Source: an uncultured Muribaculaceae bacterium
GTDB lineage: Bacteria > Bacillota_I > Bacilli_A > RF39 > UBA660
Assembly: GCA_964384115.1 (NCBI GenBank)
Contig: CAYLJU010000003.1
Location: forward strand, 7,375 to 71,374
Length of the DNA stretch: 64,000 bases
Direction of reading: 5' to 3'
This document shows positions 5,798 to 43,103 of this stretch, one piece after another. The notes below the pieces were generated by a model. That model had not been told where the DNA came from. It ran no database searches and saw only the letters and a list, made by a program, of their open reading frames with translations. The position numbers and the translations under genes are program-made. Every line of letters begins with the position of its first letter. Position 1 is the first letter of the stretch.

Positions 5798-6466
5798 TTA
5801 CTCATCTATTAATTTTATCAAATTATATCCAATAGACGTAATTATAATTTTATCTATTCCAGCATCAGCTAAAACAGGAAGATTCCCAACTGATATTGCA
5901 TTACCCGAAGACTTTAAGCTATCACAAACTTTTAATCTAAACAGATTTAAAACCATAAGTTCATATTCTTCATCATTAATGTGTAATACGTTTTGAATAG
6001 TATTTCTGTCATAATATATATTTTTATTTGTACGTGTTTCTTCTAAATTAGGATCAACACTTATTTGTTTCAATAATCTAATTTCATTAATATTTAAATT
6101 TTTTAAAATTTCAATATACATATATTTAGGATCACAATTTTTTTCAATGTCTTGCCAATTAATTAGCATATTACACCATTGTTCTTGAATTTGTTCATTA
6201 TCTTCTTGTATAGCATTTTCTAATACTTCTAAAATAAATTTAGGAGGTAATGGCGTCTCTTTTCCTTCTAATTTTCTTCTTGCTCTTTTTTTATTATATT
6301 TATCTAGAAACTTTAAAGTATTGTTCCATCTAAAATAAGATAATTGATCAACTATAATATCACCAATAGAAGCAACAACCCTATTTTTAAAATTTTTAAG
6401 CTTCAACGAACCGGTACCAACTTCAGTATCTATTGAAATTTCAAATTCTTTATCTTTTTCTTCCAT
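5798..6466 (-). CDS. hypothetical protein, possibly Abi-alpha-like (weak resemblance, from memory)
   Basis: 222 aa with an acidic/W-containing central segment (PPKFILEVLENAIQEDNEQIQEQWCNMLINW). The resemblance to abortive-infection alpha proteins is weak and unverified. Confidence 0.3.
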   Translation of the reverse strand: MEEKDKEFEISIDTEVGTGSLKLKNFKNRVVASIGDIIVDQLSYFRWNNTLKFLDKYNKKRARRKLEGKETPLPPKFILEVLENAIQEDNEQIQEQWCNMLINWQDIEKNCDPKYMYIEILKNLNINEIRLLKQISVDPNLEETRTNKNIYYDRNTIQNVLHINDEEYELMVLNLFRLKVCDSLKSSGNAISVGNLPVLADAGIDKIIITSIGYNLIKLIDE

Positions 6467-6796: not shown

Positions 6797-8782
6797 TTAA
6801 TCAAGATTATCTATATTATTATTTATTTCATCAATCAACTTTTTATTTACATTTTCATGACAAGTTACCAATTCTGAAACATCTTCTTTTGCTTGTACCA
6901 TTATATTATAATCTTTTCTTACATCTGATAATTCAAATGACATATCACCGCTTTGTCTATATCCAAATAGATCACCACTTCCTCTTAATTTAAAATCTTC
7001 TTCAGAAATTTTAAATCCATCTGATATATCAACCATTATTTTTAGTCTTTCTTTTTCATAATTTGAAATTAATATACAATATGACTGTAATTCATTTCTG
7101 CCTACTCTTCCTCTTAATTGATGAAGTGCGGATAGACCAAATCTAAAGGCATCAAATATAACCATCATTGTTGCATTTTTTACATCTATTCCTACTTCAA
7201 TAACTGTTGTTGAAACTAATATTTGAGTTTTATTTTCTTTAAAATTGTTCATTGCTTCTTCTTTTTCTTCATTTGTCATTTTTCCATGTAATAAGCCAAT
7301 TTTATATAGTTTTCCGAAGGCAGTATTCATTTTATTATACAAAGCTTCTACATTTTCTAAATCCATTTTTTCGCTTTCGTCTATTAATGGCGCGACTACA
7401 TATATTTGATGACCTTTTTTTAATTCATCTAGCATCATATATAATACATCTTTAATTTCAGTTTCTTTTTTTAGAATAGTTATTATTTTTTTTCTTCCAT
7501 TTGGCATTGTTTTAATACTTGATATATCCATATCACCGTATAAGGTTAATGCATATGTTCTTGGTATTGGTGTTGCACTCATATATAATGTATCTGGTGT
7601 GATACCTTTATTTTTTAATTCACTTCTTTGATTAACTCCAAATCTATGTTGTTCATCGGTTATTACTAATCCTAAATTATTATATTTTAATTTTTCACTT
7701 ATTAATGCATGGGTACCTATTGCAACATTTATTATTCCTTCTTCTAATTCTTTATAAATTTCTTTTTTTTCTTTGGCTTTTATTTTACTTGTTATTAAGC
7801 ATACTTTTACACCATATGGTTTTAGAAGATTGTTTATATTTTCATAATGCTGACGCGCTAATATTTCTGTTGGTGCCATTAGGGCACTTTGATATCCACT
7901 TAAATAATTTATGTAAATTGCAATAATTGATACTAATGTTTTTCCAGATCCTACATCTCCTTGTAATAATCTATTCATTCTTCTTTCGGATATTAGATCG
8001 TCATATATGTCATTTATTGCTTTTTGTTGATCTGGTGTTAACTTAAATGGTAATTCATTAATAAAACTGTCTACTTTAGATTTTTCAACATTTCTTTTAA
8101 GTCCTATTTTAAATTTTTTGTTATTTTTTAGATAATTCATTTTTAACATAAAAATAAATATTTCTTCATATTTTAAGTAATTTAATGATTTTTTCAATGT
8201 TTCTATTTCTTTTGGATTATGAACATTATATATTGCTTCTTTCTTATCTATAAAATTATATTTTTCTTTTAAATAATCTGGTACATATTCTTTTATTTCA
8301 AAATCTTGTAGTGCAATATCGATATATTTTTTTAATACTTTTCTGCTTAATCCATATGTTAAATGATATACTGGTTCAATTATTGTTTCATTACCTATTA
8401 ATCCAATTTTAATTTCACTTGCTGTAATTGTATTGTGAATTTTATCATATTTTCCTATAACTGTTACATTTGTATTTTCTTTAATAGTAGCTCTCATAAA
8501 TCCACGATTGAATATAATTATATTTACTAAATATGTTCCAGTATTTATTTTAAAGCTTAATTTATCTAAGTTCTTTTTGATGCGATAAAAAGATGGTTTT
8601 GTTTCAACTTTTCCATCAATAGTTACATATGTATTATTTTCTGCTTCTTTTAAATTACTTCTTTTTATCATGTTATATCTAAATGGATAATATGTTACTA
8701 AATCATTTGTATCTTTAATTTTTATTTTATTTAATAAATTTAATGTTTTTGGTCCTATTCTTTTAATTTCTTCTAATTTCAC
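6797..8782 (-). CDS. recG: ATP-dependent DNA helicase RecG
   Basis: 661 aa with N-terminal wedge-like region, helicase motifs GDVGSGKT (Walker A) and DEQHRFG, and a C-terminal helicase domain. Confidence 0.9.
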   Translation of the reverse strand: MKLEEIKRIGPKTLNLLNKIKIKDTNDLVTYYPFRYNMIKRSNLKEAENNTYVTIDGKVETKPSFYRIKKNLDKLSFKINTGTYLVNIIIFNRGFMRATIKENTNVTVIGKYDKIHNTITASEIKIGLIGNETIIEPVYHLTYGLSRKVLKKYIDIALQDFEIKEYVPDYLKEKYNFIDKKEAIYNVHNPKEIETLKKSLNYLKYEEIFIFMLKMNYLKNNKKFKIGLKRNVEKSKVDSFINELPFKLTPDQQKAINDIYDDLISERRMNRLLQGDVGSGKTLVSIIAIYINYLSGYQSALMAPTEILARQHYENINNLLKPYGVKVCLITSKIKAKEKKEIYKELEEGIINVAIGTHALISEKLKYNNLGLVITDEQHRFGVNQRSELKNKGITPDTLYMSATPIPRTYALTLYGDMDISSIKTMPNGRKKIITILKKETEIKDVLYMMLDELKKGHQIYVVAPLIDESEKMDLENVEALYNKMNTAFGKLYKIGLLHGKMTNEEKEEAMNNFKENKTQILVSTTVIEVGIDVKNATMMVIFDAFRFGLSALHQLRGRVGRNELQSYCILISNYEKERLKIMVDISDGFKISEEDFKLRGSGDLFGYRQSGDMSFELSDVRKDYNIMVQAKEDVSELVTCHENVNKKLIDEINNNIDNLD

Positions 8783-8858
8783 TTTTTTTCTCTCCTAAAT
8801 ATACTATACCACTTTTATTATAAAAAAACTTTATTTTCACAAAAAATTAAAAAAAAGG

Positions 8859-8888
8859 TTGACAAAGCGACCTTTTTATAATAGTATA
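8859..8888 (+). promoter_or_regulatory. sigma-A-like promoter (TTGACA -17- TAGTAT) on plus strand between recG and PFOR
   Basis: ttgaca at 8859-8864 and tagtat at 8882-8887 give a 17-nt spacer. There is no plus-strand CDS downstream. Confidence 0.45.
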
Positions 8889-8892
8889 TAAA

Positions 8893-8988
8893 TTGCCAAT
8901 TCGATTAGGCGAATTGGAAGCTAGTATTACACTAGCCAACCCCTTTTTATTCTTTTATCGGACCTGCGAAAGCAGGTTCTTTTTTTAT
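8893..8988 (+). ncRNA. candidate ~95-nt small RNA with three hairpins, ending in a canonical intrinsic terminator (acctgc-gaaa-gcaggt + UUCUUUUUUU)
   Basis: Hairpins are ccaattcg/cgaattgg, gctagt/actagc and acctgc/gcaggt. A U-tract follows only on the plus strand. A promoter lies immediately upstream. Both flanking genes are on the minus strand. Confidence 0.4.
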
Positions 8989-11900
8989 TTCCTGCTTAAT
9001 GATTCATAGTAATAGAATCTTTTTTTTGCTTCTAATATATTATATTCAAGAAGTTTATCTGCTTCACTTGGATTTATCTTTTTTATGGCATTAAATCTTG
9101 TTTGTTTTTCTAGGAAATTTTGGTAATCATCAAAATTAACTTCTTTACTATCTAATATAAATTCTTCGCCTGGTTTGTAGTGGAAAAGTGGATAATAGCC
9201 ACATGATACGGCTTGCTTTTCTATTTCTATACTGTTCTCCATTCCACCTGTTATTCCATGTGATATGCATGGTGCATATGCTATTACTATTGATGGACCA
9301 TTGTGTTCATTTGCTTCTTTTAAAACTTTAATTAATTGGTTTGGATTAGCGCCTAAGCATACTGTTGCTACGTATACATGAGGATATGATAGAGCAATGC
9401 GAGCTAAATCTTTTTTATAATTTTTCTTACCAAAGCCAGCGAATGCTGCTAGTGTTCCGATTGGTGTTGCTTTTGATGCTTGCCCACCAGTATTGGAATA
9501 TACTTGAGTATCTAGTACTAATATATTAATATTTTCATTTGTTGATAATGCATGGTCTATTCCACCAAATCCAATATCATAAGCCCATCCATCACCGCCT
9601 ATGGCCCAAATACTTCTTTTTTTAATGTATTCCTTTATTTTCTTTAATTCTGGTAATTTACTGTAATCTAAATTTTCATATACTTCTTTTGTTATATTGT
9701 AATCATTTTCATTTTCTAAATATTTTTTGCATAAAGGATTATTTTTATTTTCTTCCATTATTTTATGAATTCTTTTTTTCATTTGACTGTTTGATACGGC
9801 CATTCCTAGTGCGAATTCAGCGTTATCTTCAAAAAGCGAATTTGCCCATGGTACTGTGTATGGTGTACAAGGACTTGATGCGCCGTATATTGATGAACAT
9901 CCTGTTGCGTTTGCGATGATTAATTCTTCACCAAATAATTGAGTTAAAATTCTTATATATGCTGGTTCCCCACATCCTGCGCATGCTCCTTCAAATGCTA
10001 ATTTTGGTTTTTCAAATTGACTTCCTTTTACAGAAAATATATCAAATAAATTTTTATTTTTTATTTTTTTGTTTAAGTATTCAAATACTTCTGCTTCTTT
10101 ATTTTCTTTGGCTTTTTCTATTTTTTGAGCACTTAATGCTTTTCCTCTATTTGGACATGTTTTCATACATAGTGTACATCCTGTACAATTGTCTATTGCG
10201 ATTCCCATTATAAAATAATAATCTTTTAAGGCTTTTATTAATGGTTTTTTGCATCTTTCTTTTATGTAGTTTGGGGCTGCATTATATTCTTCTTCTGATA
10301 ATAAATATGGTCTTATTACGCCATGTGGACAAACGAATGAACACTGATTACATTCTAAACAGTATTCTTTATTCCATTTTGGTACTATGTTGCTTATAGC
10401 ATTTTTATCGGTGAATCCACTTTTGGCTGTTCCGTCAGCGTATTTTAAAAATGCTGATGTTGGAAGATTTTCACCTTTTCTATCTAATATCGCTTCTTCA
10501 ATACTATTTATATTTTCTTCTTGTTCAATTATAAAATCTTCATCTTCTAATTCTACTTTTTCTAATATTTCTAATGATTCAGCAATTGCTCTTTTATTGG
10601 CATTTATTACTTCTTCACCTTTTTTAGCGAATTTTTTTGTAATTTCATTTTTCATGTGATTGATTGCATTTTCATATTCCATTACATTTGATAATTTTAT
10701 GATAACACTTTCCATAATTGTACTTATTTTGCCTTTTATTCCTACTTTGCTTGCTAATGAGTAGGCATTTATTATGTAAAATTTAAGATTTTTGTTTTTT
10801 ATTGTATATTTGATGTTATCATTTAATGTTTTTATAATTTCTTCTTTTGATTTTTCTGTATTTAATATAAATATTCCATTTTCTTTTATTTTGTCTAATA
10901 TATTAAAGCGATCTAAGTATGATTCTTTTGTACATACTATTATGTTTGGATTTTCAACATAATATGTTGATCTTATTTTTTCTTTATTGAATCTTAAATG
11001 TGATATTGTTACGCCACCTGATTTTTTGGAATCATATTGAAAATATCCTTGAACATAATTGTTTGTATTTTCACCTACTAATTTTATTATTGATTTGGCT
11101 GCTGATACCATACCGTCTGATCCATATCCATATATTAACATTTCATTTGATGTACTTATTTTGAAATTATCGTCTACTTTTATACTTCTTTTTGTTATAT
11201 CATCTACAATTCCAACTGTAAAATTATTAAATGGTTTATCTAAGAAGTCATAAATAGCTTTTATACATGCTGGATTGGTATTTTTACTTGATAATCCATA
11301 TCTTCCACCATATATTTCAATATTTTTGTCTTTTAAGGCAGCAGTTATATCTAAATATAGTGGTTCGCCTATACTTCCTGGTTCTTTTGTTCTATCTAAA
11401 ACGGCTATTTTTTTAACTGTTTTTGGTAAAATTTTCAATAGGTGGTTTGTACTAAATGGTCTATATAAATGAACTTCAACTAGGCCAACTTTATAATCTT
11501 TTTTGTTTAAACAATCTATTGTTTCTTTGATTGTTTCATTTACTGATCCCATTGCCACTAATACTTTGGTTGCATCTTTACTACCGTAATAATTAAATGG
11601 TTTATAATTTGTATGCGCTAATTCATTTATTTTATTCATGTATTTTTCTACAATATCAGGAATACTTTCATAAAAAATATTTCTTGATTCGGTTACTTGA
11701 AAATATATGTCATCATTTTGCGCTGTTCCTTTTGTTACTGGTTTATTTGGATTAAGGGCTTTATTTCGGAATTTGTTTAAAGCGTTTTTATCTATTAATT
11801 TAGCGTATTCTTTATCATCTATAATATTTATTTTGTCTATTTCATGACTTGTTCTAAATCCATCAAAGAAGTGCAAAAATGGTATGCTTGATTCTATTGC

Positions 11901-12371
11901 TGATAAATGGGCAACTGCTGCTAATAGATTAGCGTCTTGAACTGATGATGATGCTAATATGGCAAATCCAGTTTGTCTTGTTGCATATATATCTTGATGG
12001 TCTCCCATTATGCTTAAGGCATGGGTAGCAAGGCTTCTTGCTGCAACATGAAATACTGCTGGTAGCATTTCACCTGCTATTTTATACATATTGGGTATCA
12101 TTAGTAATAATCCTTGACTTGATGTAAATGTTGTTGTTAAAAGTCCTGATGTTAGAGAGCCATGGACAAATCCGGCTGCTCCTGCTTCCGATTGCATTTC
12201 TACTACTTTAACGCGATCATTAAATATATTTAATTTTCCTTTGTTACTTTCATTATCAATGTATTCTGCCATTGGTGATGAAGGTGTTATTGGGTAAATT
12301 CCGGCAAGTTCAGTGAAAAGATAAGCTGTTCTACTGCATGCTTCATTTCCGTCAACTGTTATTTGTTTCAT
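8985..12371 (-). CDS. nifJ: pyruvate:ferredoxin (flavodoxin) oxidoreductase, homodimeric single-chain type
   Basis: 1128 aa. N-terminus MKQITVDGNEA...YPITPSS. Two 4Fe-4S ferredoxin motifs (CxxCxxCxxxCP). C-terminal TPP-binding GGDGW motif. Strong AGGAGG RBS. Confidence 0.9.
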   Translation of the reverse strand: MKQITVDGNEACSRTAYLFTELAGIYPITPSSPMAEYIDNESNKGKLNIFNDRVKVVEMQSEAGAAGFVHGSLTSGLLTTTFTSSQGLLLMIPNMYKIAGEMLPAVFHVAARSLATHALSIMGDHQDIYATRQTGFAILASSSVQDANLLAAVAHLSAIESSIPFLHFFDGFRTSHEIDKINIIDDKEYAKLIDKNALNKFRNKALNPNKPVTKGTAQNDDIYFQVTESRNIFYESIPDIVEKYMNKINELAHTNYKPFNYYGSKDATKVLVAMGSVNETIKETIDCLNKKDYKVGLVEVHLYRPFSTNHLLKILPKTVKKIAVLDRTKEPGSIGEPLYLDITAALKDKNIEIYGGRYGLSSKNTNPACIKAIYDFLDKPFNNFTVGIVDDITKRSIKVDDNFKISTSNEMLIYGYGSDGMVSAAKSIIKLVGENTNNYVQGYFQYDSKKSGGVTISHLRFNKEKIRSTYYVENPNIIVCTKESYLDRFNILDKIKENGIFILNTEKSKEEIIKTLNDNIKYTIKNKNLKFYIINAYSLASKVGIKGKISTIMESVIIKLSNVMEYENAINHMKNEITKKFAKKGEEVINANKRAIAESLEILEKVELEDEDFIIEQEENINSIEEAILDRKGENLPTSAFLKYADGTAKSGFTDKNAISNIVPKWNKEYCLECNQCSFVCPHGVIRPYLLSEEEYNAAPNYIKERCKKPLIKALKDYYFIMGIAIDNCTGCTLCMKTCPNRGKALSAQKIEKAKENKEAEVFEYLNKKIKNKNLFDIFSVKGSQFEKPKLAFEGACAGCGEPAYIRILTQLFGEELIIANATGCSSIYGASSPCTPYTVPWANSLFEDNAEFALGMAVSNSQMKKRIHKIMEENKNNPLCKKYLENENDYNITKEVYENLDYSKLPELKKIKEYIKKRSIWAIGGDGWAYDIGFGGIDHALSTNENINILVLDTQVYSNTGGQASKATPIGTLAAFAGFGKKNYKKDLARIALSYPHVYVATVCLGANPNQLIKVLKEANEHNGPSIVIAYAPCISHGITGGMENSIEIEKQAVSCGYYPLFHYKPGEEFILDSKEVNFDDYQNFLEKQTRFNAIKKINPSEADKLLEYNILEAKKRFYYYESLSRK

Positions 12372-14145
12372 TATTTCCTCCTACATCTACAAACCAAGAT
12401 TTTGTTATATTGCATGAAGCACTGTTTGGGGCGGGATTTGGCATTGCAAATTTTATGATTACAGGAATTTTAAATCCGCTTCCAAATGCCATGCACATTC
12501 CTGGTGGTAGTAATTTTATTTTTTTTACTGTTTCTTCAGTTATATTTGGTATAATTTCTTTTATGAATTCAACATCTTTAGGGTGTTGTACTTTAAATAT
12601 TAAAAAATTGCTGCACTGGGATATAGCTGTTTCTGATAGTTCTGATGGTCTTTGTGTTATTAGTCCTAATAAAACACCATATTTTCTTCCTTCTTTTGTT
12701 ATTCTATCAAATATATTATATCCTAGTAAGTTTACGTCGTTATCGTTTTGGACATATCTATGTGCTTCTTCTAAGACTATGTGAAATGGAAAAGTTGCTT
12801 TTTGTTCCATATTCTTAGCATAATCAAATAATAATTTTGAATATATTTTAGTTATTGTTTTTGCTAATCTATCATCTATGTAGTTTATATTGAAATTTAT
12901 TATTTGGGCTTTTCTTCCGTTTGGTGCTGTCATAAGATTACGAATATATTTTTCTTTTGTTATGTATTCTGGATAATCAAAATATGTGTGATTTTCACTG
13001 TTTAATAATGTGTGTAATCTTACTTTTAGTATATTTAAATCATCGTATATTTTTTGACTATTTAATACTCCTTCTGATATAAGGGCGAATTCAAAAGCAT
13101 CTTTTAAATCTTTTAATGTATATTTGAATGTTCCATCTGGTAATTGTAGATTATATTCTTCTAATAAATATCCATTCATTACATTTGTTACTAATTCCAT
13201 TTCTCTTATTTTTCCTGTTGCATCTATTAATAGGCATTGTTTTAATGGTCTTGTATATCCTGGTTGTACTACTTTAGTTTCTAGATTTAATTCACTTGTG
13301 TTGTAATATGATAATACAGAAAATACTTGGTCTCTTATTTGAGCTGGTGAATTTCCACTTGATAATATGTCGAGGATTGCACGGGCTATTATGTCATTTT
13401 TATATTTTATAACACTTGATTCTTCTCTTCCAAAGATGGTTACATATTTTAAAGCTTTTTCAATTATTGTTAATTGAGATGCTTTTTCAGCGTTTAGTAA
13501 AAGTGCTATATCGTCAACCCCTAAAAACCATAGTGGTATACGCATTATTTCGCTTGGTCCTTTGGTATTTGTTGTATATGCTTTAAAACTGATATTTGGA
13601 TTTATTTTATTTATGTTTTCAAAGGCATTATGATATTCACCATAGGCATCAAATAAAAAGATTGATGCTTTGTATGGTATAGACATTTTTTTACTGAATA
13701 AATTTTGAAATATTCGTGCTACTCCGCATGATTTTCCTGATCCGGTGGATCCTATTATTGTAAAATGTTTGCTGAAAAAATCATTTATATTGACTCCTAT
13801 TTGGACATCGTCATATATTGGGCTTGTACCTAATAATAAATCTTTGTTTTCTTTGTATGTTGGCATACCTATTATGTATGGTACTTTTTCTTTTGATACT
13901 ATTTTTACAATAGAATCTAATGATGGTTTTTTGGAAATTCCGCTTACAAATGTATTTTCTTTTATTTGACCTATTAGATTTACTTGTAGTGTGTTTTCAT
14001 TTATATTGATGACTTCACCTACTAAATTATTTTCATTATTTTCAAATACAACAAAAGAATTTGTGATATTGCCTATGTTTGTTATTTGAGGATTTAATTT
14101 TACATATACTATATTTTCTTCTATTGATATTATTTTTCCTAACAT
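12352..14145 (-). CDS. HerA/FtsK-superfamily ATPase (HAS-barrel + P-loop, DUF87-like), paralog 1
   Basis: 597 aa with an N-terminal HAS-barrel-like segment, Walker A GSTGSGKS and Walker B HIVLEEAHRY, plus an ITQRPSELSETAISQCSNFLIFK block. Its last 20 nt overlap the PFOR start. Confidence 0.75.
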   Translation of the reverse strand: MLGKIISIEENIVYVKLNPQITNIGNITNSFVVFENNENNLVGEVININENTLQVNLIGQIKENTFVSGISKKPSLDSIVKIVSKEKVPYIIGMPTYKENKDLLLGTSPIYDDVQIGVNINDFFSKHFTIIGSTGSGKSCGVARIFQNLFSKKMSIPYKASIFLFDAYGEYHNAFENINKINPNISFKAYTTNTKGPSEIMRIPLWFLGVDDIALLLNAEKASQLTIIEKALKYVTIFGREESSVIKYKNDIIARAILDILSSGNSPAQIRDQVFSVLSYYNTSELNLETKVVQPGYTRPLKQCLLIDATGKIREMELVTNVMNGYLLEEYNLQLPDGTFKYTLKDLKDAFEFALISEGVLNSQKIYDDLNILKVRLHTLLNSENHTYFDYPEYITKEKYIRNLMTAPNGRKAQIINFNINYIDDRLAKTITKIYSKLLFDYAKNMEQKATFPFHIVLEEAHRYVQNDNDVNLLGYNIFDRITKEGRKYGVLLGLITQRPSELSETAISQCSNFLIFKVQHPKDVEFIKEIIPNITEETVKKIKLLPPGMCMAFGSGFKIPVIIKFAMPNPAPNSASCNITKSWFVDVGGNNETNNS

Positions 14146-27689: not shown

Positions 27690-29447
27690 TTATGCTTTAT
27701 TTGCTTTCCATGTTTCATAAACATCACAGCTAGAACTGTATGGTGCGGGATCTGGCATTTGCATTTTTACTATCATTGGTATTTTAAATGCTTTTCCAAA
27801 TGCTACGCATGTTCCTGGTTGTAAGGACTTTTGTTTTTCAATTATTTCATTATTTATATTTGGTAACATCATTTTAATATATTCTAAATCCCTTGGATGG
27901 TTCATTTTAAATATCATAAAATTAGAACATTGTGATATTACTGTTTCTGATAATTCTACTGGTCTTTGGGATATTAAATTTAACATTACACCGTATTTTC
28001 TTCCTTCTTTGGCTACGCGTTCAAATATATTATAGCCTATTAAATATGTGTCTTCATCATTTTTTACATATCTATGGGCTTCTTCTAAAAATATATGGAA
28101 TGGTATTGATGCTCTTGTTTTTAAACTTTTTGCAAAATTAAATAACATTTTAGTGAATATTTTTGTAACAGCTTTAGCAAAACTATCATCTACTTCTTCG
28201 AGATTAAAATTGATTATTTGAACTTTTTTATTATTACTTGATATTAGAGATGCTATATATTTTTCTCTTGTCATATATGTTGGTAATTTAAAGTAATTAG
28301 AATTTTCTCCTATTACTAAAGCATGTAATTTTACTTTAAGTGTTACAGCATCACCATATGTTTGTTCATTTCTTAAAAATCCTTCAGATATTAATGTGAA
28401 TGATAATGCTTGTTCAAAATCTTCTAATGTATAATATCCTATGCTACTAGCTTCATATTTTTCTAAATCATCATTAATAAATCCTTGGATATATTGAGTT
28501 ATTAGAACACTTTCACAGAAGTTACCGGCTGTATCAATTATAAAGCATTCTCTAAATCTTCTTTGATATCCTATTCCTTGAATGATTGTTTCTAAATTGA
28601 ATTCTGGTGTTGAACATGTTTGAATTATACTAAATATATCATTTCTTTTAGATGCTGATGTTTGATTAGTATATAGTATTGTCATTATTGCTTTTGCAAT
28701 TAAATGGTTTTTATATTTTTGGGCTTCAACTCCATTTTCAGCAAATATGGCAACTAATTTAAGAGCACGCTCTAATATAGTTATTTGTCCATGATTTGTT
28801 GCGCCCAATAGTATAGCAATATCATCAACGTCTAAAAGCCATAATGGTATTTGTAATATTTCTCCTTCGGTATCATGTAGATTAGTTGTATAGTATTTGA
28901 AATTTAAATTGACATTGTATTTATTTATATCTTTAAAGGCATTATGATATTCTCCATAGGCATCAAATATAAATATGTTTGATCTAAATGGTAGATAGTT
29001 TTTATTATTAAATACATTTTGCAAAAGACGGGCAACACCGCATGATTTTCCGGAACCGGTATTTCCAAATATGGCCATGTGATTACTGAATAAATCGTTA
29101 TATTTTATTCTGACTGGACAATCGTCATATAATGGTGAGTATCCTAGTAACATTGTATCTTGTCCTTCTTCACCCACTATCATACGCATTTCACTTGGTT
29201 CAATTGCTCTTATTTTGCTTGTTAAGCTAGGTTTTCTTATAACTCCACCTATAAATTTTCCATTTACAATTTCTCCTAAAAATGATATTTTTATTTCCTT
29301 ATCACTTATATCATCTACTTCACCTAATATTTGTTTTTTTTCATCTTCAAATATAACATGTAAATTCATGATATCATTTATAACTACACCTTGTATTAAT
29401 TCTACTCGTGCGATGTTATCGCCTATATATAATATTTTTCCAAACAT
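27690..29447 (-). CDS. HerA/FtsK-superfamily ATPase (HAS-barrel + P-loop), paralog 2 (~50% identical to 12352-14145)
   Basis: Walker A GNTGSGKS and Walker B HIFLEEAHRY, plus ISQRPVELSETVISQCSNFMIFK. Collinear with paralog 1 along its whole length. Confidence 0.75.
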   Translation of the reverse strand: MFGKILYIGDNIARVELIQGVVINDIMNLHVIFEDEKKQILGEVDDISDKEIKISFLGEIVNGKFIGGVIRKPSLTSKIRAIEPSEMRMIVGEEGQDTMLLGYSPLYDDCPVRIKYNDLFSNHMAIFGNTGSGKSCGVARLLQNVFNNKNYLPFRSNIFIFDAYGEYHNAFKDINKYNVNLNFKYYTTNLHDTEGEILQIPLWLLDVDDIAILLGATNHGQITILERALKLVAIFAENGVEAQKYKNHLIAKAIMTILYTNQTSASKRNDIFSIIQTCSTPEFNLETIIQGIGYQRRFRECFIIDTAGNFCESVLITQYIQGFINDDLEKYEASSIGYYTLEDFEQALSFTLISEGFLRNEQTYGDAVTLKVKLHALVIGENSNYFKLPTYMTREKYIASLISSNNKKVQIINFNLEEVDDSFAKAVTKIFTKMLFNFAKSLKTRASIPFHIFLEEAHRYVKNDEDTYLIGYNIFERVAKEGRKYGVMLNLISQRPVELSETVISQCSNFMIFKMNHPRDLEYIKMMLPNINNEIIEKQKSLQPGTCVAFGKAFKIPMIVKMQMPDPAPYSSSCDVYETWKANKA

Positions 29448-40975: not shown

Positions 40976-41395
40976 GAGTTTTCTAGAAATTGTTGTACCA
41001 TTTATATTAGGCTTTATCTAATATAAATTCTAAATGAATATTATCAGTATTCACCACAACTTCTTATCATTAGAGTTTTTCTTTCTCATAAAACAATTGC
41101 TTTTGCTTAGCGCTGATAAGAATTTATTAATACCAATTAATAAATTTTTCTTGCTTTAAAGATCTTTTTTTTAGCAAACCGACTTGTATTATACTAAATA
41201 TAATACCAACCATCTTCAGACAGTCATTCGTGATATAAAATCACTAGTTATTTTATAAATTATTTAAATATTAAATAATTTGATAAAATATTAGGTGCTT
41301 ATATGATCTATTCTTACTAAGCAATTATATTGTAGCATATATTTTTTTCGTTGGCAATACATTTTTTGAAAATTTTGTCAAAAAATGTAATTTAA

Positions 41396-42865: not shown

Positions 42866-43026
42866 ATTTACCTACTTTCATTAAAATATATGAAACTTAT
42901 ACTTTTTTATTACTTTTTTATATTAAAAGAACTAGAATTCTTTATTACTAAGTTTTCTAGTTATTAATTGCACTAAAAAACACCATTAATGGTGCTTAAT
43001 TATCAAGTGGTGTCCCAGAAGGGATT

Positions 43027-43103
43027 CGAACCCCTGACCTTTGCCTTAGAAGGGCACTGCTCTATCCAGCTGAGCTACTGAGACATCAACTAGATTGATT
43101 ATA
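43027..43103 (-). tRNA. tRNA-Arg (anticodon TCT)
   Basis: 77-nt cloverleaf with a 7-bp acceptor stem (one G-U pair), GGTTCGAATCC T-loop, anticodon loop CTTCTAA, and an encoded CCA. Confidence 0.85.

Follow-up and report, generated by a model that had tools for sequence, protein, structure and literature searches.

A probable small RNA gene between recG and PFOR, with homologues in uncultured gut and rumen Bacilli

Does the space between two neighboring genes on one strand hold an independent gene on the other? The question arises in a 64,000-nucleotide (nt) stretch of contig CAYLJU010000003.1 (assembly GCA_964384115.1), called the window throughout, in which recG and PFOR, both encoded on the minus strand, are separated by a gap of 202 nt. 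A sequence-only reading of this gap had proposed a small RNA gene on the plus strand, with a promoter and a terminator of its own. Comparison with about 100 homologues bears out this proposal: a promoter held in register with the RNA, compensatory changes in three helices, an excess of G-U pairs, and terminators throughout the set indicate that the gap very probably contains a genuine small RNA gene. The RNA family that it represents is new and absent from Rfam, is of a familiar kind, and, as far as seen, ranges over uncultured gut and rumen Bacilli. As an explanation of the whole we favor, as probable rather than assured, a trans-acting riboregulator of about 92 nt with a sigma-A-type promoter and its own terminator.

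Promoter, hairpins, and terminator in the recG–PFOR gap

The plus strand of the gap carries, as the sequence-only reading had pointed out, a TTGACA-17-TAGTAT promoter at 8859–8887, lying between two minus-strand genes. Its −35 box, TTGACA (8859–8864), and its −10 box, TAGTAT (8882–8887), which follows after a 17-nt spacer, were both identified by promoter scan and by conservation in the family. This was the top promoter-like match within the 2-kb region scanned; 14 such sites were found there versus 14.8 expected, and the match alone is not significant. Because the number of promoter-like sites does not exceed chance, the window by itself could not decide the question, and it is the conservation across homologues, set out below, that led us to judge the element convincing. 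The plus-strand segment 5′ of the −35 box (8829–8858) consists of A/T tracts that resemble an UP element, as recognized in an alignment of 87 family promoters, and in the window this segment doubles as the promoter region of the divergent recG. No full Rex box was found near the promoter, where only the half-site TTCACAA (8836–8842) was seen by eye.

Three consecutive hairpins follow on the plus strand, all perfectly paired and each where it had been proposed (8896–8917, 8920–8936, and 8960–8979). Folding gives hairpin 1 as CCAATTCG/CGAATTGG in the DNA (8896–8903 with 8910–8917), or CCAAUUCG-AUUAGG-CGAAUUGG in the RNA (8896–8917), and hairpin 2 as GCUAGU-AUUAC-ACUAGC (8920–8925 with 8931–8936). 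These are succeeded by a C/U-rich segment, CAACCCCUUUUUAUUCUUUUAUC (8937–8959), which its conservation and unpaired probability mark as the proposed seed; the window copy contains a single CCCC run (8940–8943), and the family consensus likewise has one. Hairpin 3, which is GGACCTGC-GAAA-GCAGGTTC in the DNA (8960–8979), runs directly into seven T residues (8980–8986). The terminator scan found the two together as a plus-strand intrinsic terminator, GGACCUGC-GAAA-GCAGGUUC-UUUUUUU (8960–8986), in agreement with the earlier proposal. The 96-nt stretch that holds these structures folds at −31 kcal/mol versus −15.7 ± 2.9 kcal/mol for dinucleotide shuffles (z −5.3; reached by 0 of 200), and G+C content is 40% in the small RNA versus 25% across the window.

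The register between the −10 box and hairpin 1 places the transcription start at about 8895, directly 5′ of hairpin 1, so that the RNA would begin at G8895 (±1) and would end inside the T tract. Covariance model R1 matched the window at 8895–8986 on the plus strand (79.6 bits, E = 8.5e-14), which delimits a predicted small RNA of about 92 nt, and no second good R1 match was found in the 64-kb window.

What the minus strand carries was judged less accurately in the sequence-only reading, which had held that none of its three hairpins is followed by a U tract on that strand. The T tract after the last hairpin is indeed confined to the plus strand, but the minus strand is not free of terminator-like sequence. 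A fourth hairpin, AAAAAGGT/ACCTTTTT (8852–8859 with 8870–8877, minus strand), recognized in the sequence and in the intergenic fold, encloses the −35 box and is followed by a U-rich run on the minus strand, and the reverse complement of hairpin 1 scored as weakly terminator-like in the scan. Counterparts of the 8852–8877 hairpin are found in two homologous loci (L136 and L013) and are not general in the family. In the window, transcription coming from PFOR meets no good minus-strand terminator ahead of the small RNA gene. Since the first minus-strand hairpin with a U tract is the one at the −35 box, read-through from PFOR would cover the entire RNA in antisense, and the 8852–8877 hairpin may be the end point of such read-through transcripts.

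Homologues and conserved features of the small RNA

We assembled the homologues along two routes. Drawn from one genome per species, the closest relatives of the window's PFOR share only 50–61% protein identity and come from metagenome-assembled genomes (MAGs) of uncultured gut "Bacilli," "Mollicutes," and "Tenericutes" in rabbit, human, and digester samples. A search of their loci with the intergenic sequence located the element within 3 kb in 10 of 17 related Bacilli-type PFOR loci, on the strand opposite to PFOR in all 10, with a core of 37–53 nt that is 94–97% identical across them. A metagenome scan with a 22-nt core pattern returned at least 120 stretches. Full-length copies then numbered 111, with 103 of them unique, these counts and others derived from the metagenomes being counts among the matches listed. 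Among the sources are human gut assemblies, a ground-squirrel sample, and Ga-numbered records that we take, from their accessions, to be rumen and digester samples; the window's own contig was met once, in the Logan assembly of run SRR6824180. The 22-nt bait pattern lies inside the seed segment and thus partly presupposes the invariance of the core in the scanned set. No such bias affects the 10 loci reached through PFOR without the bait pattern, and their conservation is equal.

The promoter is kept in every one of the 99 typical members that the promoter and terminator counts cover. All have a −35 box of the form TTGAC[AT], and all have a −10 box of the form TAnnAT (TAGTAT in 57, TATTAT in 20, TAATAT in 11), as expected for a genuine sigma-A −10 box. 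The spacer between them, variable in sequence, measures 17 nt in 94 members and 16 nt in 5, and the distance from the end of the −10 box to the first C of hairpin 1 is 8 nt in 92. Upstream of the −35 box the sole conserved feature, seen in the 87 aligned promoters, is that A-rich and T-rich blocks alternate, repeating roughly every 10 nt; such phased tracts may strengthen the promoter.

Conservation of the RNA itself was measured as identity in 89 covariance-model matches and as pairing in a model-guided alignment of 92 matches, which was used in place of a MAFFT alignment because the latter placed the 3′ arm of hairpin 3 out of register. At least 97% identity is found at 41 of the 98 model positions, compared with a median identity of 54% to the window proteins for RecG and PFOR from those loci. 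In the pairing alignment, which was fitted to the structure and favors it, 99.0% of pair cells hold standard pairs, versus 18–50% when the 3′ partners are slid by 1–3 columns. Changes on both sides occur in 15 of the 20 pairs, and the observed values were reached by 0 of 500 shuffles. Compensatory changes in relatives, to which the sequence-only reading had looked for confirmation, thus appear in all three helices, and they can be read directly from raw sequences (CCAATCC/GGATTGG, CCAAATC/GATTTGG, CCAGCTCTGG/CCAAAGCTGG, and ACTAGT/ACTAGT).

The three helices vary in different ways. In hairpin 1, all seven modeled pairs show two-sided changes, 99.5% of cells are paired, and the loop differs in length. 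Hairpin 2 is nearly invariant, its loop included; the closing pair is G-C in 79 matches, G-U in 8, and A-U in 4, and the remaining pairs do not vary. The stem of hairpin 3 differs in sequence among homologues with its pairing kept, and two-sided changes affect 7 of its 7 pairs. Across the stems, 55 G-U pairs occur against 5 A-C pairs, a relation that would be reversed on the other strand and that therefore indicates an RNA read from the plus strand.

Between hairpins 2 and 3, the unpaired segment CAACCCCUUUUUAUUCUUU is essentially invariant (at least 97% identical), and for the proposed seed CAACCCCTTTTTATTCTTT shows at least 97% identity over the 89 homologues. This segment of about 22 nt is unpaired in the thermodynamic ensemble with a mean probability of at least 0.9, the value being 0.90 for members in which hairpin 3 has a G-run, 0.99 for those in which it has none, and 0.99 for the window copy. 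The 3′ end is more diverse. At least five T residues lie within the 8 nt after hairpin 3 in 74 of the 99 members; the other 25 are without a T tract there and have a terminator composed of an A-run, a hairpin, and a T-run 10–20 nt downstream, so that hairpin 3 constitutes a separate module in them. The apex of hairpin 3 reads YCUCAGGGGG in 83 members; in the remaining 16, among them the window copy and the closely related L136, the G-run is missing and the terminator is plain.

These features also speak to the possibility that no small RNA is made at all and that the hairpins are 3′ structures or terminators of PFOR, a leader of recG, or a tiny ORF (open reading frame). Such a reading can draw on the position of the element inside a short gap between two minus-strand genes, on a 30-codon minus-strand ORF that we noted by eye (from a TTG at about 8939 toward lower coordinates), and on the weak terminator likeness of the reverse complement of hairpin 1. 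It is opposed by the balance of G-U and A-C pairs, which favors the plus strand, by the plus-strand promoter kept in register with the RNA, and by the T tract found on the plus strand only. The ORFs are no more favorable to it: the longest range from 4 to 29 codons, lie on the plus strand in 54 members and on the minus strand in 45, and are conserved in neither strand, frame, nor length. We find this reading scarcely credible, and the suggestion that unconserved hairpins might merely structure the 3′ end of PFOR is contradicted by their conservation.

Other identities were considered and rejected. A coding gene is at odds with the ORFs just described, and the distance between hairpins 1 and 2 occurs in all three frames, being 0, 1, and 2 modulo 3 in 50, 26, and 23 members. 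No tRNA or tmRNA was called at the site. As for a leader or riboswitch, 78 of 108 loci have their nearest downstream ORF on the other strand, and the same-strand neighbors show no dominant family.

Two loci depart from the usual arrangement. One copy is present per locus everywhere except on a 1115-nt contig (L140) that has two full copies about 790 nt apart, at 103–205(−) and 894–994(−), which represent either a tandem duplication or an assembly artifact. In L181 (11538–11631, minus strand) the seed-region sequence TTTTTATTCTTTTATGAAC is repeated right after the terminator, which looks like a partial duplication of the 3′ half of the gene.

Gene neighborhood and phage copies of the core

The commonest neighbor of the small RNA gene is recG (6797–8782 in the window, minus strand; RecG_wedge, DEAD, and Helicase_C domains), which is divergent from it in 66 of 109 loci. 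A median distance of about 90 nt from the recG ORF to the RNA region sets the promoters of recG and the small RNA back to back. PFOR (ORF 8985–12371, minus strand; Pfam domains POR_N, POR, PFOR_II, and TPP_enzyme_C) is the convergent neighbor in 35 of 108 loci. Its stop codon in the window (8985–8987, minus strand) is overlapped by 2 nt of the small RNA T tract, so the complementarity between the 3′ ends of the small RNA and the PFOR mRNA that the sequence-only reading had described is geometrically true there. It is not a property of the family: the PFOR-overlap arrangement is a minority one and touches the least conserved part of the RNA, and in three loci (L005, L012, and L015) the RNA lies 1.4–2.1 kb from the end of PFOR.

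This arrangement raises the question of whether the RNA is a cis-antisense regulator that pairs or collides with the convergent PFOR transcript or modulates the back-to-back recG promoter. In favor of such a role are the overlap with the PFOR stop codon in the window, the lack there of a good minus-strand terminator ahead of the small RNA gene, the frequency of convergent PFOR and divergent recG, and the occurrence of the RNA within 3 kb in 10 of 17 related PFOR loci. The conserved overlap with PFOR expected of a cis-antisense RNA, however, is not found across homologues, and other genes lie downstream at most loci. What abuts PFOR is the variable terminator stem, the invariant part of the RNA would not be needed for pure antisense action, and the linkage is explicable by inherited gene order. 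We therefore regard a cis-antisense role as improbable.

Several further features of the window adjoin this neighborhood. A gene for a HerA/DUF87-type ATPase (12352–14145, minus strand) overlaps the PFOR start codon by 20 nt, which makes co-transcription with PFOR probable; a paralogue with 48% mutual identity ends near 29447 (minus strand). The minus-strand run that contains recG also encodes, two genes farther downstream, a protein with an Abi_alpha (abortive infection) domain (5798–6466, minus strand). Farther away, the window holds a PGK RNA motif (RF03040) at 41034–41127 on the minus strand (74.1 bits versus a gathering score of 50.8) and, near it, a tRNA-Arg(tct) at 43008–43084 on the minus strand.

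A part of the small RNA is also found in phages. The 35-nt core formed by hairpin 2 and the seed occurs in identical form on five IMG/VR viral contigs and two phage-like metagenome contigs (L203:6415–6504(+), L204:4277–4352(−), L205:10617–10715(−), L206:8108–8183(+), L207:9428–9511(−), L164:770–861(+), and L182:1380–1475(+)), in each case without hairpin 1, the promoter, and hairpin 3. The core lies inside a conserved phage region, which in L205 comprises about 740 nt without an ORF of at least 60 amino acids (aa). It starts, in L204 and L206, exactly at the end of a 149-nt tRNA-like match (35 bits to Rfam tRNA; ARAGORN calls none), and in L164 it has an unannotated 138-aa ORF on one side and, downstream on the other, the genes for the terminase small subunit (terS), the large subunit (terL), and the portal. 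Among GenBank phages, neither the small RNA nor the phage element found a match. The sequences are compatible with a phage-expressed copy of the host RNA core, which we consider possible. At a further locus (L202), the first ORFs beside the RNA are not phage-like and, judged by eye, encode BspA-like surface proteins.

An identical core on these contigs, which lack hairpin 1, the promoter, and hairpin 3, could alternatively mean that the conserved 35 nt are an integration core, that is, a phage attachment site or the remnant of a mobile element. In about 130 host loci, the core was never found joined to a host flank on one side and a phage flank on the other, which leaves this explanation unsupported; the module in L164 sits in the packaging region and not beside an integrase, and an attachment site would leave the promoter, the covariation, and the terminator unexplained. 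We hold it to be highly improbable. Five loci (L107, L104, L150, L099, and L135) do have tyrosine recombinase genes (370–438 aa) at 2.3–2.9 kb from the RNA, which may mark a mobile element or represent a conserved recombinase gene; none is adjacent to the RNA, so they do not support an attachment site either.

Proposed action in trans and relation to known RNAs

On sequence evidence, the gene combines a promoter and a Rho-independent terminator of its own with an accessible, conserved seed, as is characteristic of a trans-encoded small RNA. From this anatomy and from precedent we think it fairly probable that the RNA acts by pairing in trans. In such a mechanism, the gene would be transcribed from a strong sigma-A-type promoter up to its own intrinsic terminator, yielding an RNA with two 5′ hairpins, a permanently single-stranded CAACCCCUUUUUAUUCUUU, and a 3′ terminator hairpin. 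The single-stranded segment would pair with the purine-rich, GGGG-type ribosome-binding sites of a few mRNAs and would thereby keep translation from starting or change the decay of the mRNA, in the manner of the C-rich regions of RsaE/RoxS in Bacillales. GGGG occurs in the Shine-Dalgarno window of 60 of 1282 start regions (4.7%), 4 of 121 in the window; because such sites are rare, a seed that seeks them would be selective.

Our target screen covered about 820 kb around the gene. Within the window, the best site was one of 15 bp at the start of the HerA-like gene that lies upstream of PFOR; it scored −15.1 kcal/mol and spans the Shine-Dalgarno sequence and the start codon. The PFOR start region was rejected as a target; it has no complementarity to the seed, and the order of its purines is reversed.

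Several observations weigh against action in trans. The HerA-like site is not conserved in L196, the one other homologue available, and this candidate was therefore dropped; recG start regions scored at background (median −8.2 versus a mean of −7.8 kcal/mol), and PFOR was not among the best-scoring gene clusters in the screen. Most homologues were retrieved by the seed pattern, which biases the sample toward an invariant seed, and all carriers found are assemblies of uncultured organisms. Conservation also extends beyond what a seed needs, hairpin 2 being invariant together with its loop and hairpin 1 nearly so. Finally, an RNA that binds a protein or folds into a pseudoknot would account just as well for the strong promoter, which is of a housekeeping type, and for the conserved G-rich apex in hairpin 3 (83 of 99 members).

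Such an RNA is the main rival to a trans-acting regulator. On that view the gene would encode a housekeeping RNA with a structural or protein-binding role, serving the ribosome or some conserved protein as decoy or cofactor, and CCCC would be tied up with the G-rich apex in an intramolecular pseudoknot, leaving no free seed. The near invariance of hairpins 1 and 2, with the AUCAC loop, is consistent with this, as is a near-consensus promoter with phased A/T tracts, which is typical of highly expressed stable RNAs. RNAalifold, run on the MAFFT alignment, proposed a CCCCU:AGGGG pairing, and the YCUCAGGGGG apex persists as a module where another hairpin serves as the terminator. The 16 members without the G-run, the window copy included, nevertheless keep everything else, which makes the pseudoknot dispensable. 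Moreover, CCCC and GGGG are invariant and so offer no covariation in support of their pairing, nested folding places the G-run largely into an extended stem of hairpin 3, and no Rfam housekeeping family was matched. A structural role is thus unlikely in our estimate, yet it is the alternative to be taken most seriously.

A trans-acting regulator, the reading we prefer, invites comparison with known families. The Rfam comparison suggested for the element was run and matched no family: at gathering thresholds, Rfam 15 gave no relevant family in the window or in 15 loci, and at permissive E-values the window element and L013 drew PyrR, SpF41, BTnc231, and RsaE as terminator-only or chance-level matches. 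Membership in RsaE/RoxS (RF01820) was rejected, L013 reaching 18.7 bits (E = 0.51) where the gathering score is 79, and within 8700–9100 of the window RsaE/RoxS was not listed up to E = 10. The two RNAs are alike in a length of about 100 nt, a promoter of their own, an intrinsic terminator, unusually high conservation across distant Bacilli, and an unpaired, U-rich motif containing CCCC. In the new RNA this motif is ACCCCUUUUU; in RsaE it is ACCCCUUUGUUU. They differ in that RsaE/RoxS has four C-rich regions (CRR1–4; PMC4409812) and the new RNA one, and in hairpin layout, neighborhood (recG and PFOR), and host clade (uncultured gut Bacilli/Mollicutes-like MAGs). RoxS/RsaE occludes Shine-Dalgarno regions through its C-rich regions (PMC4409812), and RsaE binds G-rich motifs in rocF (PMC6158497). 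As to the ResD/SrrA (and Rex) sites by which RsaE/RoxS transcription is controlled from upstream of the promoter, the corresponding region in the new family shows conserved A/T tracts only. The resemblance of the new RNA to RsaE/RoxS is an analogy at best and not family membership.

A second likeness is to the 3′ end of 16S rRNA, whose anti-Shine-Dalgarno tail is ACCUCCUUU. In both RNAs, a hairpin is followed by an unpaired tail of the ACC(U)CCUUU type, and ACCCCUUUU agrees with ACCUCCUUU at 7 of 9 positions. The new RNA differs in standing outside the ribosome, and its CCCC would prefer GGGG over the usual GGAGG, a preference that would direct it to the 4.7% of start sites with GGGG.

A third comparison concerns a four-hairpin subgroup of the family. 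In nine loci (L082, L107, L108, L127, L139, L147, L149, L176, and L199), genes for small membrane proteins of 84–161 aa are convergent to the RNA; the proteins have an acidic N terminus, two predicted helices, and the motif YFFGYFFMFCLDK. GGGG lies in the Shine-Dalgarno window of 9 of 10 members of this protein family, versus 4.7% overall, and on these sequences the protein is a possible target, or a toxin-like partner, of the RNA in that subgroup. The convergence of the RNA on a two-helix membrane-protein gene, with which it shares a bidirectional-looking terminator, recalls RatA/txpA and SR4/bsrG. Unlike in those type I toxin-antitoxin systems of Firmicutes, the neighbor is present in about 10 of 131 loci, with no homologue in the window, its product is a protein of 84–161 aa and not a peptide of 30–60 aa, and the neighboring gene lies clear of the conserved part of the RNA.

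Our literature search, by core sequence and by topic, found no description of the small RNA. In source type and discovery logic, the work closest to ours is the catalog of candidate structured RNAs from human gut metagenomes by Fremin and Bhatt (2021; PMC8040213). It includes a motif, HMP2_148, that has RecG among its neighbors and occurs mainly beside acetyltransferases (PMC8040213). The small RNA sequence was absent from the 200 of 408 supplementary files of PMC8040213 that could be searched, and it may be listed in the rest.

The several strands can be joined in a more far-reaching scenario, which we consider doubtful as a whole: a highly expressed, clade-wide regulator of uncultured gut Bacilli that combines an anti-Shine-Dalgarno mimic, a Shine-Dalgarno mimic that gates it, and capture by phages. 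The anti-Shine-Dalgarno mimic would be ACCCCUUUUU, and the gate in most lineages would be the CAGGGGG apex of hairpin 3. Phages would have captured hairpin 2 and the seed and fused them behind a tRNA-like element, from which tRNA-processing enzymes would release the core. If this were true, the phage copy would let a phage take over the host regulon.

To our knowledge, hardly any regulatory RNAs have been described from the uncultured gut, rumen, and digester lineages related to Bacilli and Mollicutes, in which no genetic testing is possible. The small RNA offers an entry point to post-transcriptional regulation in these uncultured Bacilli and, being short, single-copy in the window, recognizable, and better conserved in its core than the flanking proteins, a practical marker. 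The occurrence of its core beside tRNA-like elements in phages suggests an interplay of host and phage around the small RNA. Should anti-Shine-Dalgarno mimicry and the selection of GGGG sites prove true, a functional equivalent of RsaE/RoxS would have arisen in a different branch of the Bacilli.

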